Of a stretch of DNA of 64,000 nt, positions 382 through 42,822 are shown one piece after another. The DNA comes from a plasmid. Position 1 is the first letter of the stretch. Each line of letters starts with the position of its first letter. The stretch is from the NCBI RefSeq assembly GCF_056712565.1, contig NZ_JBWXXM010000004.1; one strand, given 5' to 3'. The notes under the pieces were generated by a model. That model did not search any database, was not told the DNA's origin, and was given only the letters and a program-made list of their open reading frames with translations. The translations under genes and the position numbers were made by a program.

Positions 382-1383
382 TTAAGGCTTCGGCTTTTTA
401 TCGAGGCTCTTTCTAAGGATATGCCCAATCATCCTGTCGAGTTCTTCCTGTAGCTCTTTTGAAAGTCGATTAAACTCATAAGAAAATGCACGGCCTTTCA
501 CGCGCTTCCTTGCAAAGCGATCCTTGTCCTCAAATTTCCATAATTCAGTAACTACGGACTTATCTTTAGAACCTTTATCCGTGAGTAGTGAGGCTTCCTT
601 TGTTATCAAGCGCAGGATTTTATTTTTAACTTCATCTTCGGCCATTTCTTCAATGGATAAGATGTCGTTTATTTCCGGGGATATGTTTTGAATAAGCTGA
701 TCAAACTCTAAATTCTTGTTCCCCATTTCGTCGCCAACAGCACAAAGCGTTTTGTAGTCCGAAAAGGTTAATTCCGACTGCACAGGGAAAAGGGCGACTA
801 ATTCTTCCGGAGCACTCGCTGCCTGGAGAGCACGCGTGACCTTCGCCTGAGACAGCCCTTCTTTGGCTGCAATATCCTTCTGACTCATCCCATCATTTTT
901 CATTCGCATCAAACGCAGACCTATTTCTCGAATGCTGTGCTGCAATGCTGTCTGAACGTCTTTCGCTAAATTTTGCGCTTCCTGAACGCTGATCTCCTGG
1001 TCCGTGACTAAAACCCGCAACCCTACGTTCTCTAAGATGGCAGAAGCTCGACGCCGGGAACCATCCAAAATTTCAATTTTCCCTGTAGCCCGTCTGACAC
1101 CTATTGCAGGGTAAAATTGCTGATGCTTAATAGTGCTTCGGATACTTTTTAATGATTTTGGCGTAAGAGATGCCTGGTCACGCCCGTTGTTATGCTGATC
1201 AACAAAGGTATCGCTTTCTACCTGGTTCGGAGGTATTACCTCTTCAATAAATGTGGCCTGGCGACCAGTTGATAACTTGAATACCTGCTCGACTCGATCG
1301 CCAGAGGCTGAAGAACTATCAAATCCGCTTAATATTGAAGGATTAAGGGTTCGCCCAATTGTTGGTCTGTTTTTCTTTGACAT
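382..1383 (-). CDS. parB: Partition protein ParB (centromere-binding)
   Basis: 333 aa, the P1 ParB length. Adjacent to parS and translationally close to parA. Contains a ParB/Spo0J-like GSRRRASAI box. Confidence 0.9.
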   Translation of the reverse strand: MSKKNRPTIGRTLNPSILSGFDSSSASGDRVEQVFKLSTGRQATFIEEVIPPNQVESDTFVDQHNNGRDQASLTPKSLKSIRSTIKHQQFYPAIGVRRATGKIEILDGSRRRASAILENVGLRVLVTDQEISVQEAQNLAKDVQTALQHSIREIGLRLMRMKNDGMSQKDIAAKEGLSQAKVTRALQAASAPEELVALFPVQSELTFSDYKTLCAVGDEMGNKNLEFDQLIQNISPEINDILSIEEMAEDEVKNKILRLITKEASLLTDKGSKDKSVVTELWKFEDKDRFARKRVKGRAFSYEFNRLSKELQEELDRMIGHILRKSLDKKPKP

Positions 1384-1399: not shown

Positions 1400-2596
1400 T
1401 CAGTTAGATCTGATAAATTCAATACGGTCAAAAACTGCTTTAGCAAAATCTTCCGCAGCAATTCGCGCGTTCTTCAATGCATCAGCACTACCAACATACG
1501 TTGCCGGGTTAGCTGAAATAACAGTGTCAAAAGACTCGCCGCAGCGTTCAAAACCGTCAAGGCGAGGGAGGACAACATCAAGCATATCCCCACCGAACAC
1601 TTCTTTAGCCAGGCTATGGCAATACTTATGGTCTGCCTTGTTACTCAACTTGGACATAAATCCAATGTTAGTTGCAAGCTGACACTCGCAGCCTTCATCC
1701 GAAATGAGTTTCACCAACTCAGGAAGGCGGGCAACGTATTTAAGCGATGAGTGGAAATCAACCGTTGCAGGCGGCAGAGGTGTAAACAGTATATTGGCCG
1801 AGGCCAAAGCATTTTTCAGGAAGGCGTCAAGGTGAGGACCACTATCAACGAGGATAAAGTCATAATCGCTCTTCAGCTTATCAATCACATTTTCTTTCAG
1901 GACTGCATGGATGTTCTGACCCGGTAGATGCTCATTGCACAGCTCTCTCCAATCGGATGCAATAAAGGCATCGTCAATCGACGCAGGCATAACGTCAACC
2001 CCAGGTACAACAGAAGGAACAATAAACTCCTCTAACAGCTCTTCACGGCTTACATTCTGCAACATAGCCTGTGCAGATGTTGCGTTTACGATACCAATAG
2101 AGTGTTTATGGCTTAAAAACATCGTTGCTGAAGATTGCGGATCAAGGTCAATAACCAGAATCCTTAAATCTTCCATCAGAAGATGAGGATGAGCACGCAT
2201 TGCATGCGCCAGAGAAACCGTCGATACAGTTTTTGACACACCGCCTTTAAGATTGGAGATGAAAATCACATACGCTTCGCTGTAGCGATCCCGGTATTTT
2301 GGCACTCCGCGATGTTCATATATGTCAATGATGTTCTGAATTGACATCGCATATTTCATTGAAGAGCCAGCAGGGCGTTTATCGAAAACATAACCCTTTT
2401 CTTCCATTTCACTTACGGCATAGTCAACGTTCGCACGAGTCAGTAGAGGCAATTTTGCCAGTGCCGCTTTCGCATAGACCTGGTAAAACTCGTTCGCGTG
2501 TAGCTCATCCTTTTGCAACTGTACTTGTTCAGTCAGAACATTGAGCATTCTATTTGCTCTTTGAGCAACCTTGTGAAGCTGGCTGGAATCACTCAT
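1400..2596 (-). CDS. parA: Partition ATPase ParA (type Ia Walker-type)
   Basis: 398 aa with deviant Walker A NLKGGVSKT and an N-terminal HTH extension, upstream of parB. Confidence 0.9.
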   Translation of the reverse strand: MSDSSQLHKVAQRANRMLNVLTEQVQLQKDELHANEFYQVYAKAALAKLPLLTRANVDYAVSEMEEKGYVFDKRPAGSSMKYAMSIQNIIDIYEHRGVPKYRDRYSEAYVIFISNLKGGVSKTVSTVSLAHAMRAHPHLLMEDLRILVIDLDPQSSATMFLSHKHSIGIVNATSAQAMLQNVSREELLEEFIVPSVVPGVDVMPASIDDAFIASDWRELCNEHLPGQNIHAVLKENVIDKLKSDYDFILVDSGPHLDAFLKNALASANILFTPLPPATVDFHSSLKYVARLPELVKLISDEGCECQLATNIGFMSKLSNKADHKYCHSLAKEVFGGDMLDVVLPRLDGFERCGESFDTVISANPATYVGSADALKNARIAAEDFAKAVFDRIEFIRSN

Positions 2597-2608
2597 CGAA
2601 AGTCATCC

Positions 2609-2650
2609 TTTATGCTGTATTTTTGAATTTAATTAAAAATGCTGCATAAA
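2609..2650. promoter_or_regulatory. par promoter/operator imperfect inverted repeat
   Basis: TTTATGCTGTATTTTT..AAAAATGCTGCATAAA palindrome immediately upstream of the parA start, as in the P1 parOP. Confidence 0.6.
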
Positions 2651-2736
2651 ATAATAATGTATGCGTAGATGCTTGTACATAGCATTCTCTGCATGTTTGG
2701 TTCATTTTGCACGATTGAGAGTTACAAGGAGGGCAC

Positions 2737-2757
2737 AAAAAAGCCCCGTTCAGGGGC
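2737..2757 (-). terminator. Intrinsic terminator of the T5orf172-like gene
   Basis: Minus strand shows GCCCC-TGAAC-GGGGC followed by T6, starting 8 nt after the stop codon. Confidence 0.7.
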
Positions 2758-2764
2758 ATCAGTG

Positions 2765-3574
2765 TTATTTGCTAAGAGCAGCGAATAATCGTTCGAAATC
2801 GATAGTATCTATAGCACGCGTAAGCGCCGGAAGTTCAGCCTCAAAGTACCCGTGTCGATCGTAAAAGAAGGGACCGAAGAGCGAGGCATGTTGGATTCTA
2901 CTTCGCCCCAGCCCGGACACACAGTTAAGCCCATTACCGGCTAAAAGGCTAAAAAACTTCTCTGGATTATCGTGGTAAAGCTGGGAATCAATGGTGGCGG
3001 TTAACTCTTCCATAGGGAAGCACACCCGCCCTGTATCCCAGGGATATTTAGTCCGAAGCATAAACATTGCTTTCAGCAATTCACATTGAGCGCGGATCGC
3101 GTCCGGTTCATAGCCAGATATGGAGACATAAGCCACGTCCCTCATTCCTGCGTCATCTTTGAAAGTCACGATAGAAGTAACATCCAGCTCTTTTTCGAAA
3201 GAGCAAGCAGCATCTACTGGACGCTGAAGTAAATCATTCGACTTAATGCGCTCGAGAATCCCTCCCCACATATCATTTAGATATTCGATATGAGCCAAAA
3301 CCTTATCAAGACACTCTCGTGTAAACCATTCAGTATGCCCGCCACCGACGCTTTTCTCCCACGGCGCATTCCAGGGGAAAAAGGTTGCGTGTAAAGCCCG
3401 CTCAAGATTAACCATTGCCAAACGCGTACCACGATAGACCCGTGAAAGCGCAAAATCGGGACTCACTTGTAGTCCTTTAAACCGTGCCAATGGACCACAT
3501 GAAATGCCGATTTTAAAAGTATCTCCGTTCTCTGGCACCAGAACGTAGAGGTAGTGTTGTTTCTCTTCTTGCAT
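2765..3574 (-). CDS. T5orf172 / GIY-YIG-like domain protein with an uncharacterised C-terminal half
   Basis: The N-terminus YLYVLVPENGDTFKIGIS..RFKGL..LERALHATF..HTEWF fits the T5orf172 (MUG113) pattern. The gene has its own terminator. From memory, P1 has no gene at this position. Confidence 0.6.
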   Translation of the reverse strand: MQEEKQHYLYVLVPENGDTFKIGISCGPLARFKGLQVSPDFALSRVYRGTRLAMVNLERALHATFFPWNAPWEKSVGGGHTEWFTRECLDKVLAHIEYLNDMWGGILERIKSNDLLQRPVDAACSFEKELDVTSIVTFKDDAGMRDVAYVSISGYEPDAIRAQCELLKAMFMLRTKYPWDTGRVCFPMEELTATIDSQLYHDNPEKFFSLLAGNGLNCVSGLGRSRIQHASLFGPFFYDRHGYFEAELPALTRAIDTIDFERLFAALSK

Positions 3575-3604
3575 ATCAATACCACTGCTTGATGAGAACC
3601 GCGC

Positions 3605-3865
3605 AAATGTTGACTATGCGCGAAGGTTAATGTGAATAGTTGACTATGCGCGATGTGACTACAGTCAAAAGTTGACTGTAGTCGATTTAACTCCACCAAA
3701 GATCGACTATGTAAGATATTGTCGGGAGAAACGTTGACTATACGCGATGAAATGCCCCTAAAAGCCATCTCAATAGCGACTTGCAGAATATTGACGCCAG
3801 CAAAAATCCACCAGCGTCAACGAATGTCGCCTATAGTCAACTTCTCGCTATCGCATATAGTCAAT
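3605..3865. repeat. incA-like copy-control iteron array (about 9 copies in both orientations)
   Basis: Repeated GTTGACTAT(G/A)CGCGA-type 15-mers and degenerate copies lie downstream of repA. Confidence 0.75.
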
Positions 3866-3866
3866 A

Positions 3867-4751
3867 TTATGGATTGCGCTTATGGATCTGGAAGCCGATT
3901 TTCCTGCCGTTTTTTATCTCTGAAAATTTAAGATATTCAATAGCTTCCAAATCTTTCATGGCTTTTCTGATAACGCTATTTTGCACGCTAACGGATGATT
4001 TGAGATTAAGCCTCGCTCTAAGGCGCTCAATGCTGACAGGTGCCGGGTTGGCGGGTAGAGCCTCAAAGAATGTATACAGTACCTTGGCCGTCTCTTTGCG
4101 CCCTAGTTTATCCAGCATCTTCAGCTTCAGGATTCGCTTATAGTCAACATAGTAAAGTTCAGATAGCTGTTTCTGCGGCTGGATCTCGATAACATCAAGC
4201 TCGGTATTCAGGCTGCTATATGCCAACAAGTTGACGTTAATGTTATTGAGATGACCTTTTGCCGCCGGGAAGCGGAATTTGACAACTGTCTGCTGAATGC
4301 GTGTCAGAGAGTCATCAATACTTTTACGGAACGCCTTTGAAAGGCGCTTACGTGGATAGCCGCATCGATCGGCAAACTCGGAGAATGGCAGGGTGATTAT
4401 GCCGTCATCATCAGGTGCGTAGTCAAACAACGCGGAAGTTATGCCCACCCACACCTTAAAATCAGTATCCATATCCAGGCGTGGACCATGAATTTCAATT
4501 CCCTCATAGCCTTCCTGCTCAACAATTTTGAGGCTTGATAGTTCTTCAGTTGCGTTCGTTGTGTTTGTTGTAACTGACGATCCGCGACGTAGCGCCACAT
4601 TGGTAGATTTTAAGGTTGGCACAAACACACCTAAGCGCAACAAAGCGATGGGTTGTATAGTGCTGTTGTTATTGGGCTTCAGGCTGTGGATTTCTCCTGT
4701 ATTTCCTGCAACTTCTTCAACGCTAAGGAAGCCTTTACTTTCTTCCGGCAT
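3867..4751 (-). CDS. repA: Iteron-binding replication initiator RepA (Rep_3/RepFIB-like; not the P1 IncY RepA sequence)
   Basis: Flanked by iteron arrays on both sides. ATG at 4751 follows RBS GGAGA; the ORF track extends to a TTG at 4787. The C-terminal winged-helix-like region is typical of iteron initiators. Confidence 0.8.
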   Translation of the reverse strand: MPEESKGFLSVEEVAGNTGEIHSLKPNNNSTIQPIALLRLGVFVPTLKSTNVALRRGSSVTTNTTNATEELSSLKIVEQEGYEGIEIHGPRLDMDTDFKVWVGITSALFDYAPDDDGIITLPFSEFADRCGYPRKRLSKAFRKSIDDSLTRIQQTVVKFRFPAAKGHLNNINVNLLAYSSLNTELDVIEIQPQKQLSELYYVDYKRILKLKMLDKLGRKETAKVLYTFFEALPANPAPVSIERLRARLNLKSSVSVQNSVIRKAMKDLEAIEYLKFSEIKNGRKIGFQIHKRNP

Positions 4752-4832
4752 CACGGTTTCTCCATGTGTGGCGCGGCCTGACGTCAATTTGGATGGCTGT
4801 TATCAACAGCTGTGAATATTCAGACTCTAAAA

Positions 4833-4932
4833 TCGCTTACAGTCAATGTTTCTGTCGCGTATAGTCAACAATAAATCGCGTGCAGTCAACAATAAATCGT
4901 GCACAGTCAACATAAAATCGCGTATAGTCAAT
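4833..4932. repeat. Origin iterons (5 direct copies, spaced about 21 bp)
   Basis: TCGCTTACAGTCAAT, TCGCGTATAGTCAAC, TCGCGTGCAGTCAAC, TCGTGCACAGTCAAC and TCGCGTATAGTCAAT, directly upstream of repA. Confidence 0.85.
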
Positions 4933-5043
4933 GTTGATCCCATTTCAGGCCAGTAATGACGCGGCTTACAGCGATCCGGGATCTTCTTTGGATCTTCCTA
5001 GGTTCTCTTTAGGATCTGTTTATTGGATCTATGCTGTGGATAA
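4933..5043. other. oriR-like GATC-rich unwinding region plus DnaA box
   Basis: Six to seven GATC sites within about 90 bp, then TGTGGATAA (reverse complement TTATCCACA) at 5035-5043. This is the same layout as P1 oriR. Confidence 0.75.
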
Positions 5044-7281: not shown

Positions 7282-7298
7282 ATTGCTCTAATAAATAT
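7282..7298 (+). promoter_or_regulatory. C1 operator
   Basis: ATTGCTCTAATAAATAT against the consensus ATTGCTCTAATAAATTT. Confidence 0.7.
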
Positions 7299-8552: not shown

Positions 8553-10813
8553 AAGAGCTGTGCTATGGATCTGTTTGCAGTGGAATTGAAGCCGCGAGTA
8601 TTGCCTGGGAACCGTTGGGTATGCGTCCGGCGTGGTTTGCTGAAATCGAGCCTTTTCCATCTGCCGTTCTTGCGCACCGCTGGCCCCATGTCGCCAACCT
8701 TGGCGACATGACAAAACTTGCCAAAAAAGTCCTGGCTGGGGAAATCGAATCCCCTGATGTGCTCGTCGGGGGTACGCCTTGTCAGGCATTCAGTATCGCG
8801 GGCTTACGTGGTGGGCTTGATGATGAACGCGGCGCGCTAACTTTGAAGTATGTGGAGCTTGCAAATGCAATTGACGACAAACGGTCTGAGTCCTTCCTCA
8901 AACCGACAGTTATCGTCTGGGAAAATGTCCCAGGAGTCCTGTCATCGGCAGATAACGCCTTCGGATGTTTCCTTGCCGGATTGGCTGGAGAAGATGCGCC
9001 ATTTGAACCAGGTGATCGACCTGAATCAGGAAAAAGTAACGCGTTCTGGCGGTGGGATGGCAAAACCGGTTGCCATGCTCCAAAGTGGCCGCAGTGTGGT
9101 TGTATTTATGGACCGCAGCGAAAGGTGGCCTGGAGAATCCTTGATGCCCAATACTTCGGAGTGGCACAACGACGCCGACGCGTGTTTGTTGTCGCAAGTG
9201 CTCGAACAGACCTCGATCCCGCAACGGTACTTTTTGAGTTCGAAGGCGTGCGCCGGGATATTGCGCCGAGCCGAAAAAAGAAGGAAATCGCTTCCGCCAT
9301 TATTGCAAATGGCGCTGCAATCAGTGGCGAAAGCCTAAATCCATGTCTACACGCTGACATTCCACCCGGTATGAAATCGACGAAAGCCGTAAACGCTTTC
9401 AGGATGGCAGCATTTGGGGAATATATTGACGATGAAACCGCATCGACAGTAAAGGCAAGAGATTTTAAAGATGCCACTGACCTTGCCGTTTTTAGCAGCA
9501 CAGGAGCAGGTTTTTGGTCAGAAGGGCATGGTACATTGCGGGCACGTGAGCAAGAAAGCCATGAGCATCTTGTTACATTGGCTTTTCCTGAGCGTATGAG
9601 CGGTACACAACATGCTGCAACTAAGAATACTTCACCATCTCTAATGGCTAAAAATCCAACAGCTGTTTGCTATGAAGTAAGAAACGCAGAAGTAGCTGTC
9701 CGCCGTCTTACCCCTGTCGAATGTGAAAGGCTGCAAGGTTTTCCTGATGGGCATACGTTGATCCCGACGGAAAAGCGTAAAAAAGTTAATTCAGATGAAC
9801 TGGCATATCTTCGCAATCACTATCCAGATTTAAGCGAAGAAGAGGCCGCGATGCTTGCAGCTGACGGACCGCGTTACAAAGCGATCGGCAATAGTATGGC
9901 AATACCAGTAATGCGCTGGATTGGCGATCGGATTACTAAGGCCGTATGTCGGCAGAAAGAAGGAAGTGAAACAAAAGAGCGAAAAGTTAAACCAGCGGCA
10001 GAATTCGAACGGTCCATATTCAAATGGGCTGGTGGAAAATTTGGTGTTCTGGAACAAATCTTTCGCTATTTGCCAGAAGGGAAGCGCCTGATTGAACCTT
10101 TCGTTGGTGGCGGAGCTGTCTTCATGAATGCCGGATACCAGGAAAATCTGCTAAATGATGTGAATGCTGACCTGATTAACTTTTACAAGACTCTGCAACG
10201 CGAGGCGCATTCACTTATCACTCTGGCACATCGTTTCTTCCAGGACTATAACACACAGGAAGGATACCTGGCAGTACGGAATGCGTTTAACAAACAAGTC
10301 TATGATGATTTACATCGCGCAGCGGCGTTTTTGTTCCTGAACCGACATTGTTTTAACGGATTGACGCGTTACAACCAGGCCGGTGAGTTCAATGTCGGTT
10401 ATGGGAAGTATAAAACTCCGTATTTCCCATTACAGGAGATGGAAGCCTTCCTCGGTGCGGAAGGGCGGTCTGAGTTTGTATGCGGTGATTTTGCAGCGGT
10501 GATTGAAGCTGCCGGAGAAGGAGATGTCATCTTTTGCGATCCGCCGTATGAACCGCTTCCAAATACAGAGGGATTCACGAACTATTCCGGTCATGACTTT
10601 AAGTTTGAAGAGCAAAAACGCCTGGTGTCTCTGTTGACGGATGCTCATCGTCGAGGTGCAAAGGTTCTCATTACTAACAGTGGCGCGCCAAATATCAGAG
10701 AGCTTTATCATGACAGTGGCTTCAGAGTGGAACCTCTTTTTGCCAGACGTTCTGTGTCTTGTAAGGGGGACACTCGAGGTGTAGCTCATGACGTTTTAGG
10801 TATATTGCTCTAA
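8549..10813 (+). CDS. dmt: Bifunctional DNA methyltransferase (N-terminal C5-cytosine MTase fused to a C-terminal Dam-like N6-adenine MTase)
   Basis: 754 aa. C5 motifs: [22 protein letters not shown] and the QGFP/GNS region. Dam motifs: FKWAGGK and DPPY. Confidence 0.9.
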
Positions 10814-10833
10814 TAAATTTATTAGTGTAATAT
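10804..10833 (+). promoter_or_regulatory. Bipartite C1 operator overlapping a sigma70-like promoter (Op72/Pban-like)
   Basis: ATTGCTCTAATAAATTT overlaps an inverted copy AAATTTATTAGTGTAAT. TTGCTC (-35) and TAATAT (-10) are spaced about 16 nt apart. Confidence 0.7.
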
Positions 10834-11485: not shown

Positions 11486-11560
11486 GATGGTGTAGCTCAG
11501 CGGTAGAGCAGTTGGCTGTTAACCAACTGGTCGGTGGTTCGAATCCATCCACCATCGCCA
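11486..11560 (+). tRNA. tRNA-Asn (GUU), CCA encoded
   Basis: Hand-folded cloverleaf: acceptor GATGGTG/CACCATC, anticodon loop CTGTTAA, T-loop TTCGAAT. Confidence 0.9.
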
Positions 11561-11562
11561 AT

Positions 11563-11638
11563 GCCGGTTTAGCTCAGTTGGTAGAGCGCCTGCCTTGTAA
11601 GCAGGATGTCAGCGGTTCGAGTCCGTTAACCGGCACCA
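11563..11638 (+). tRNA. tRNA-Thr (UGU), CCA encoded
   Basis: Acceptor GCCGGTT/AACCGGC, anticodon loop CTTGTAA, T-loop TTCGAGT. It starts 2 nt after tRNA-Asn. Confidence 0.9.
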
Positions 11639-13274: not shown

Positions 13275-13350
13275 GGCCCTTTAGCTCAGTGGTTAGAGCT
13301 GGCGACTCATAATCGCACGGTCACCGGTTCAAGTCCGGTAGGGGCCACCA
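13275..13350 (+). tRNA. tRNA with CAU anticodon (Ile2/lysidine-type or Met), CCA encoded
   Basis: Acceptor GGCCCTT/AGGGGCC, loop CTCATAA, T-loop TTCAAGT. The P1 counterpart is annotated tRNA-Ile. Confidence 0.85.
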
Positions 13351-42805: not shown

Positions 42806-42822
42806 TAATTTATTAGAGCAAT
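42806..42822 (-). promoter_or_regulatory. C1 operator (Op99 cluster)
   Basis: Reverse complement ATTGCTCTAATAAATTA has 1 mismatch. Confidence 0.75.

Follow-up and report, generated by a model that had tools for sequence, protein, structure and literature searches.

A predicted T5orf172-family nuclease gene forms the par-proximal end of an exchangeable p0111-type replicon cassette in P1-like phage-plasmids

Introduction

In P1-like phage-plasmids, the p0111-type replicon cassette and the IncY incC-repA-incA cassette are alternative alleles that replace one another at the same two junctions. Here we find that ORF269, a gene wedged between the copy-control and partition modules, is the par-proximal end-gene of the swappable p0111 cassette and not a one-off insertion. 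Its product is securely a T5orf172/GIY-YIG-superfamily protein and, judging from its conserved motifs, probably a Mg-dependent DNA nuclease or nickase.

P1-like phage-plasmids with the p0111 cassette are found in 7.6% of complete E. coli genomes and have been reported to carry ESBL and mcr resistance genes. ORF269, a probable nuclease, is the sole uncharacterised gene of this cassette. The gene has been seen before, so far without interpretation. RefSeq already annotates it and PHROG 2876 includes it. Copies 94-100% identical occur in 12 phage and 401 plasmid records, and no function is assigned to it in the known records. One phage record calls it a "terminase small subunit", a label that nothing in our analysis supports. 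In the literature, an ORF of unknown function was described that, together with repA', takes the place of P1 repA (PMC9603915), and Venturini et al. noted that pSvP1 has "2 orfs inserted between repA and parA" (PMC6906374). We considered pSvP1 as a possible independent insertion at the rep-par junction and rejected it, the full-length match (H195) being the same gene as ORF269.

Results

ORF269 and its surroundings

The window analysed here is a 64,000-nucleotide stretch of plasmid DNA (contig NZ_JBWXXM010000004.1, NCBI RefSeq assembly GCF_056712565.1). The original prediction placed a gene with its own terminator between the copy-control iterons and the par promoter, and this arrangement is what we find (Table 1); the span that it gave, 2737-3600, covers ORF269 and the terminator. 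The frame is no chance reading frame, since PHROG 2876 matches it over its full length (E=1e-194), it is intact in ~400 plasmids and its dN/dS is ~0.25. The terminator hairpin begins 8 nt past the stop codon, and an analogous hairpin trails the homolog of ORF269 in the diverged lineage L002 described below. The ORF269 transcript would end at this predicted terminator, ahead of the par promoter, and the terminator would insulate Ppar from upstream transcription. At the other end, the ATG stands 34 nt beyond the end of the last control iteron and is preceded, at 5-6 nt, by AGTGGT in both the window and L002. Between the end of the control array and the ATG, no sigma-70-like promoter is predicted. 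The window has 15 C1-operator-like sites, all of them away from the cassette; the nearest is at 7282. Expression is probably low, and the simplest reading is that it would come from read-through from the repA promoter over RepA-bound iterons.

The neighbours are those of an iteron replicon joined to a P1 partition module. The iteron core occurs 12 times in the window, a count reached by 0 of 100 shuffles, against 1.1 copies expected by chance. RepA, of the type that PlasmidFinder names p0111, shares 40% identity with P1 RepA, and its open frame reaches up to a TTG at 4787. On the other side, the segment that runs from Ppar and the ParA operator through parA and parB is 99% identical to the annotated P1 counterparts.

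Table 1. Features of the p0111-type replicon cassette and the adjoining partition region (positions in the window)
Feature	Position	Strand	Description and source
parB	382-1383		follows parA
parA	1400-2596		follows ParA operator
P1-type ParA operator	~2594-2672		mapped from P1
par promoter (Ppar)	2651-2679	minus	TGTACA-17-TATTAT; promoter scan, P1 homology
Exchangeable cassette	2699-4948		2,250 bp; origin iterons, repA, control iterons, ORF269, terminator; no P1 homology (blastn vs NC_005856)
Intrinsic-terminator hairpin	2743-2757	minus	GCCCC-TGAAC-GGGGC (5-nt loop), then T-run TTTTTTGTGC; terminator scan and sequence
ORF269	2765-3574	minus	269 aa, ATG start; RefSeq "GIY-YIG nuclease family protein"; PHROG 2876
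C-terminal orphan region	2768-3289	minus	residues 96-269; acidic (pI 4.9), mixed alpha/beta, weakly winged-helix-like (Rep WH1/ORC-like)
T5orf172 (GIY-YIG superfamily) domain	3320-3553	minus	residues 8-85; Pfam PF10544
Putative weak Shine-Dalgarno	3581-3585	minus	GTGGT, ~6 nt upstream of ORF269 ATG; read off sequence
incA-like control iteron array	3609-3865		six clear iterons, core TCGCGTATAGTCAAC
Control iterons, one orientation (n=4)	3609-3623, 3639-3653, 3671-3685, 3733-3747		iteron scan
Control iterons, opposite orientation (n=2)	3827-3841, 3851-3865		iteron scan
repA	3867-4751	minus	"p0111"-type Rep_3-family iteron-binding initiator; 294 aa from ATG; annotated 885 bp
Iteron internal to repA	4134-4148		iteron scan
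Five origin iterons (incC equivalent)	4833-4932	+	21-22 bp spacing; iteron scan

ORF269 is the end-gene of a swapped cassette

Homology to P1 (blastn vs NC_005856) covers positions 1-2698 of the window (99%), stops there and resumes from 4949 on (94%), so that the intervening segment replaces the 1,491-bp incC-repA-incA segment of P1. Ppar and parAB border the cassette at one end; at the other lie upfA and the DnaA-box/GATC part of oriR. The right junction falls 19 bp upstream of the -35 element of Ppar and 67 bp beyond the ORF269 stop codon. The left junction lies ~16 bp past the outermost origin iteron, and the DnaA-box/GATC half of oriR is therefore common to both replicon types. In P1, the ~190 bp between Ppar and incA iteron 1 contain no gene, just as the original prediction had stated, and neither P7 nor the Cronobacter phage JK004 has a gene at this position. 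These gene-less loci differ from the window by the whole replicon cassette and not by ORF269 alone. The further idea that ORF269 is inserted cargo is only partly right: the gene is a constant part of a 2.25-kb cassette, not an insertion into the rep-par interval.

This linkage is tight in the collections that we searched. All 12 phage records with ORF269 are P1-like (SJ46, RCS47, JL22, where it is "gp57", phi456, Ro157c2YLVW and others). In PLSDB, 401 records contain the gene, none of them below 90% protein identity, and 398 contain a p0111-type RepA, the next relatives of that RepA falling below 60% identity. Coverage of the contiguous repA-iterons-ORF269 block reaches 80% or more in 391 of 404 PLSDB records; among the exceptions inspected, the copy in AP024695.1 is cut by the end of the record and one other is truncated by IS1. 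In complete E. coli genomes, ORF269 is present in 411 of 5,426, at 413 places on plasmids and 7 on chromosomes, and in the one chromosomal place inspected repA and parAB still flank the gene. Of more than 400 copies, ~97% have an intact frame. Frameshifts and changes at the C-terminus are rare and occur in otherwise complete plasmids; in one of these records a sequencing error is likely because parB is split there as well. Thus, the sporadic presence or absence at collinear loci that marks homing endonuclease genes is not seen here, the p0111 allele carrying ORF269 essentially always.

A diverged lineage and a sister replicon

A word-indexed search of 5.8 billion proteins returned a lone divergent homolog outside this tight cluster, P0004, at 44% identity. 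It is encoded on a 95.7-kb P1-like contig, L002, in the order repA, control iterons (with the same core), ORF, hairpin, parA and parB. The L002 lineage and the window share ~66-70% nucleotide identity; a search of PLSDB for closer relatives of this lineage gave none above ~71% identity. The par region of L002 is 85.5% identical to that of JK004, which has an IncY-type replicon, and the two differ by a block (L002 6821-9037) that comprises the origin iterons, repA, the control iterons, the ORF and ~100 bp more. The L002/JK004 junctions are those between the window and P1, so that, in two diverged P1-like backbones at least, the cassette with ORF269 and the IncY cassette are alleles of each other. 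In both comparisons it occupies the edge of the exchanged segment, as homing endonuclease genes do, its stop codon lying ~100 bp from the junction in L002 versus JK004.

A sister replicon behaves differently. Its RepA, P0011, is 85% identical to that of the window and is found in other phage-plasmids of ~90-94 kb (L012 and L013; PLSDB NZ_CP085065.1 and CP042620.1), which have the same iteron core and the same 5 + 1 + (1+4) array layout. In L012 and L013, tblastn detects no trace of ORF269, and the stretch that aligns with the window goes no further than the last control iteron. The p0111-type replicon therefore does not need ORF269, and the gene is not present wherever this type of RepA and its cognate iterons occur. 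Rather, ORF269 is specific to the combination of a p0111-type replicon with a P1-like rep-par junction. The original prediction would have fallen if the gene were universal in its replicon family as part of the replication control region; the universality is real (391 of the 404 records, and L002), but membership of replication control is contradicted by L012 and L013.

Selection on ORF269 is purifying but relaxed. Across seven copies, chosen as the most protein-divergent ones and thereby inflating dN of ORF269, mean dN/dS is 0.25 for ORF269 (N-terminal part 0.30, C-terminal part 0.23), 0.035 for repA, ~0 for parA and 0.04 for parB. An unbiased population count shows the same tendency, with 282 of 401 ORF269 copies but 393 of 398 RepA copies at 99% protein identity or more. 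Together, these numbers indicate that ORF269 is kept by selection yet evolves several-fold faster than its neighbours.

A T5orf172 domain coupled to an orphan region

The T5orf172/GIY-YIG-related pattern that the original prediction had read in the N-terminal region is borne out. Pfam PF10544 matches with 26.9 bits (gathering score 20; E=6.9e-6), while the MUG113 and Tox-URI2 Pfam matches stay below threshold, and all five motifs quoted in that prediction are present: Y8-L-Y10-V-L, K21-I-G-I-S25, R31-x3-L35, L61-H62-x2-F65 and E82-W-F84. Moreover, phrog_681 ("endonuclease") matches the domain with E=7e-9, and the PDB yields a weak sequence match to 1ywl, a GIY-YIG/URI protein. In a Foldseek search of BFVD with the full-length model, the top matches are T5orf172, GIY-YIG and MUG113 proteins (probability 0.99-1.0, E at least 0.004). 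The AF2 model shows strands at 7-12, 20-25 and 45-49 and helices at 51-65 and 86-102, at a pLDDT of only 36-72. All five motifs, and among the single residues Y10, K21-I-G23, R31, E58, H62 and E82-W-F84, are invariant in P0004. The catalytic domain of I-TevI uses Y6, Y17xG19, R27 and E75, a spacing that Y10, K21xG23, R31 and E82 of ORF269 parallel, and E82 would then be the candidate catalytic glutamate. Since the T5orf172 motif residues are intact, we infer that ORF269 is probably an active nuclease or nickase.

The C-terminal region was said to be unrecognisable, and by sequence it is. An exhaustive HMMER search of 1.84 billion representative proteins gave no relatives of these ~175 residues beyond the gene's own family, fragments and the 44% homolog, and the region has no Pfam, PHROG-function, NCBIfam or PDB sequence match. 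Its fold resembles Rep WH1, RepE, RctB and the COG5527 initiator weakly, with two models and three libraries; these matches are only suggestive, as AF2 confidence is poor (pLDDT 61 for full-length ORF269, 50 for the C-terminal region). A captured RepA domain, as in the nuclease Odn, was considered and rejected at the sequence level: hhalign gives the C-terminal profile 0.3% probability against a 20-sequence Rep_3 alignment, BLASTP against P1 RepA is not significant, and there is no sequence relation to the cassette's own RepA either. ORF269 is thus not an Odn-like nuclease-RepA chimera. The region has a pI of 4.9 (4.8 in the homolog), and whole ORF269 one of 5.5, compared with 9.3 for RepA and 9.7 for I-TevI. 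ORF269 contains no CapR-type Zn-finger modules (no CxxC, no Pfam match). With an acidic C-terminus that lacks CapR, DUF723 or DUF4397 Zn-finger modules, a sequence-reading DNA-binding domain is not evident.

Discussion

A nuclease competing for the replicon locus?

What, then, does a probable nuclease do at the end of a replicon cassette? By analogy with homing endonucleases, we tentatively favour the possibility that ORF269 is a selfish or competitive nuclease that promotes its own cassette at the expense of the rival IncY cassette, a reading that we regard as possible rather than probable. Should a p0111-type and an IncY-type P1-like element meet in one cell, ORF269 would cleave the allele or plasmid of the IncY rival. 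Repair or recombination through the flanking homology, at par and at the oriR DnaA-box region with upfA, would then work in favour of the ORF269 cassette, in a form of marker exclusion or cassette drive. We lean towards this competitive nuclease because ORF269 sits at the cassette edge in two independent comparisons, is limited to backbones in which an alternative IncY allele exists, and is dispensable for the replicon while evolving faster than its neighbours. The non-P1 backbone of the sister replicon has no IncY allele with homologous flanks, and no ORF269. There are also precedents: T5orf172 genes are homing endonucleases at genetic-exchange boundaries, near essential genes (PMC10448857), and the T5orf172 nuclease Odn can be aimed at the origin of a rival replicon (PMC8263062).

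Several observations speak against a competitive nuclease. There is no presence/absence polymorphism of ORF269 within the p0111 allele, the disrupted copies being frameshifts and IS1 truncations. Cassette and backbone seem to have diverged together, each standing at ~70% nucleotide identity, so that long vertical retention fits better than repeated invasion. No sweep is visible either: the two replicon types coexist, with IncY in 31 and p0111 in 24 of 55 elements (PMC9603915). The acidic C-terminus, with no evident DNA-reading module, weighs on the same side, and the structure models are of low confidence.

A stronger version, modelled on the fold resemblance of the C-terminal region, would make ORF269 the drive element of the whole replication cassette. 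A Rep-WH1-like domain would direct it to RepA-bound or rival iterons, an IncY-type P1 would be cut in or near incA/oriR, and the rival would either become p0111 through repair from the flanking homology at par and oriR or simply be lost. We consider this version improbable. Were it true, it would be a case of homing with an entire plasmid replicon as cargo, and would account for both the IncY/p0111 dimorphism and the constancy of the junctions across P1-like phage-plasmids.

The same resemblance could be read in terms of replication itself. WH1 is the dimerisation domain of Rep_3 initiators, and an acidic WH1-like domain, of a character that suits protein contacts, could touch RepA and bring a nuclease or nickase to RepA-bound iterons, with a possible influence on handcuffing, initiation or copy number in P1-like elements. 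ORF269 lies directly downstream of the control iterons, co-oriented with repA and without a predicted promoter of its own, the repA-ORF269 linkage is kept in two lineages, and the structural matches to Rep WH1, RepE, RctB and the COG5527 initiator, although weak, are repeated. However, the sister replicon does without the gene although its RepA is 85% identical and its iterons are the same, constraint on ORF269 is much weaker than on repA and parAB, and no sequence relation ties it to Rep proteins. We therefore regard an accessory role in replication or partition as unlikely, if less so than the two proposals that remain.

One of these was part of the original prediction, which suggested an exclusion, defence or addiction function and finds no direct support here: neither PADLOC nor NCBIfam models match, and there is no partner or antitoxin ORF. 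A stand-alone nuclease that degrades incoming foreign DNA, in anti-phage or anti-plasmid defence or in superinfection exclusion, would be in keeping with the T5orf172/GIY-YIG domain, with the conflict genes that phage-plasmids commonly carry as accessories and with the faster evolution of ORF269. Against this, the gene stands single, with no recognisable sensor, methylase or immunity partner. It is fixed inside the replicon cassette instead of lying in a variable region or defence island, no C1 operator governs it, and IncY P1-like elements of the same lifestyle go without it. In fact, no family of PADLOC-DB 2.0 matches ORF269 at E up to 1, and an NCBIfam scan is equally empty. Such a role seems to us distinctly unlikely. 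Lastly, ORF269 might have no function at all, as a former homing endonuclease or cargo gene that hitch-hikes wedged between two essential modules. Its relaxed constraint relative to the neighbours, the occasional frameshifted or truncated copies in otherwise complete plasmids and a replicon that works without the gene elsewhere could all be taken this way, but a decayed passenger would hardly keep dN/dS at ~0.25, well below 1 despite copies picked for protein divergence, or an open frame in ~97% of more than 400 copies. The L002 lineage, with DNA only ~66-70% identical, also has an intact frame at 44% protein identity and keeps all motif residues, and we think a functionless gene very unlikely.

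If a nuclease indeed biases competition or recombination between replicon types, the turnover of replicons and the incompatibility behaviour of phage-plasmids would have a mechanism. The idea that nucleases mark exchange boundaries would then extend from lytic phages to plasmid maintenance regions. If not, ORF269 would remain a widespread and conserved orphan-domain protein, predicted to be a nuclease.

Relation to known nucleases

Among T5orf172 nucleases at exchange boundaries, ORF269 is unusual in its orphan second domain and in its position within a plasmid-maintenance region. Its architecture, with T5orf172 at one terminus and another domain filling the rest, is shared by the homing endonucleases that Barth, Dunham and Seed (2023, PMC10448857) describe from phages such as ICP1. 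Like ORF269, these are free-standing, beside essential genes and at the edge of an exchanged block (PMC10448857). Most of the phage enzymes, however, carry a CapR/DUF723/DUF4397 Zn-finger array where ORF269 has its acidic orphan domain (PMC10448857), and they are found in structural and replication operons of lytic phages. The likeness to homing is one of analogy, and ORF269 lacks the sporadic presence or absence within its allele that is typical of homing endonuclease genes.

Odn (ICP1 Gp88) is, like ORF269 by prediction, a T5orf172 nuclease tied to an iteron-type replicon (PMC8263062). The DNA-binding domain of Odn and the RepA_N domain in the RepA of its target share 42% identity (PMC8263062), whereas ORF269 has no sequence relation to Rep proteins, and the domain order is reversed between the two. 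Odn is encoded by the attacker of a replicon, ORF269 beside a replicon. In the free-standing T4 endonucleases of the I-TevI/Seg type, too, a GIY-YIG-type catalytic domain at the N-terminus precedes a C-terminal domain, and Seg-type marker exclusion has the outcome that we propose for ORF269, the preferential inheritance of linked markers. I-TevI is basic (pI ~9.7), with a Zn-finger and helix-turn-helix DNA-binding region, in contrast to the acidic ORF269 (pI 5.5). Finally, ORF269 falls in the T5orf172 subfamily, with KIG where I-TevI has YIG.

Sites within the replicon

The RepA initiator gene of the p0111-type replicon contains, within its own coding sequence, a single iteron copy, and an equivalent iteron lies inside the repA genes of L002 (a 95.7-kb P1-like contig) and L012 (a phage-plasmid whose RepA is 85% identical). 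Because the internal iteron is kept at the matching position in all three of these diverged replicons, conservation of the sequence suggests that it is a functional RepA site in RepA's own gene. A second element, an imperfect palindrome of 30 bp, separates two iteron groups of opposite orientation. Its left half, TTGACGCTGG(T/C)GGATTT, is common to the window, L002 and L012, but the hairpin is not kept in L002; the palindrome could be a protein-binding site rather than a terminator. The start codon of repA itself is ambiguous: the open frame starts at a TTG at 4787 (306 aa), with an alternative ATG at 4751 (294 aa) that is backed by RefSeq and by the L002 homolog.

Coordinates of sequence features in the window and in two related replicons
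Feature	Record	Position	Sequence or context
Lone iteron within repA	window	4134-4148	TCGCTTATAGTCAAC
Equivalent iteron within repA	L002	7612-7626	
Equivalent iteron within repA	L012	5604-5618	
Imperfect palindrome	window	3791-3820	TTGACGCTGGTGGATTTTTGCTGGCGTCAA
Three tRNA genes	window	11486-11560, 11563-11638, 13275-13350	
C1-operator matches (examples)	window	10804-10820, 26636-26652, 42806-42822	

Replicon and cargo in related elements

L012 and L013 belong to a distinct family of phage-plasmids of about 90-94 kb, found in E. coli and E. marmotae (PLSDB hits H270-H277), in which a phage tail protein is annotated beside rep. The 85%-identical RepA is present in some members; in others the neighbouring genes are shared but the repA part of the query has no close (megablast-level) DNA match, which suggests that replicons have been swapped in this second phage-plasmid family too. 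Names for the p0111-type replicon are inconsistent, since it is labelled "IncHI1B" by MOB-suite typing in PLSDB records of P1-like plasmids and p0111 in the literature and PlasmidFinder.

The 269-aa T5orf172/GIY-YIG-type gene is rarely disrupted. Among four such copies, in L003 (CP043240.1), L004 (ON470615.2), L005 (CP088756.1) and L021 (NZ_AP027538.1), two are frameshifted, one is a C-terminal variant of 254 aa and one is an IS1-truncated remnant sitting in an IncFIB cointegrate of 231 kb. The disruption in ON470615.2 is likely a sequencing error, because parB is split there too. In the record of phage phi456 (OR339795.1, 39982-40788; hits H4 and H21) the gene is named "terminase small subunit", a name without support from Pfam (T5orf172) or from PHROG 2876, which has no known function.

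P1-type features across the window

The P1 C1-repressor operator consensus has 15 matches in the window, between 7282 and 58981, against 0.33 expected by chance, and none of the 15 falls in the rep-par region. These matches confirm a P1-type immunity network spanning the window. ARAGORN found three tRNA genes, Asn-GTT, Thr-TGT and a CAT-anticodon tRNA called Met; P1 carries the same set, its CAT tRNA being annotated as Ile.
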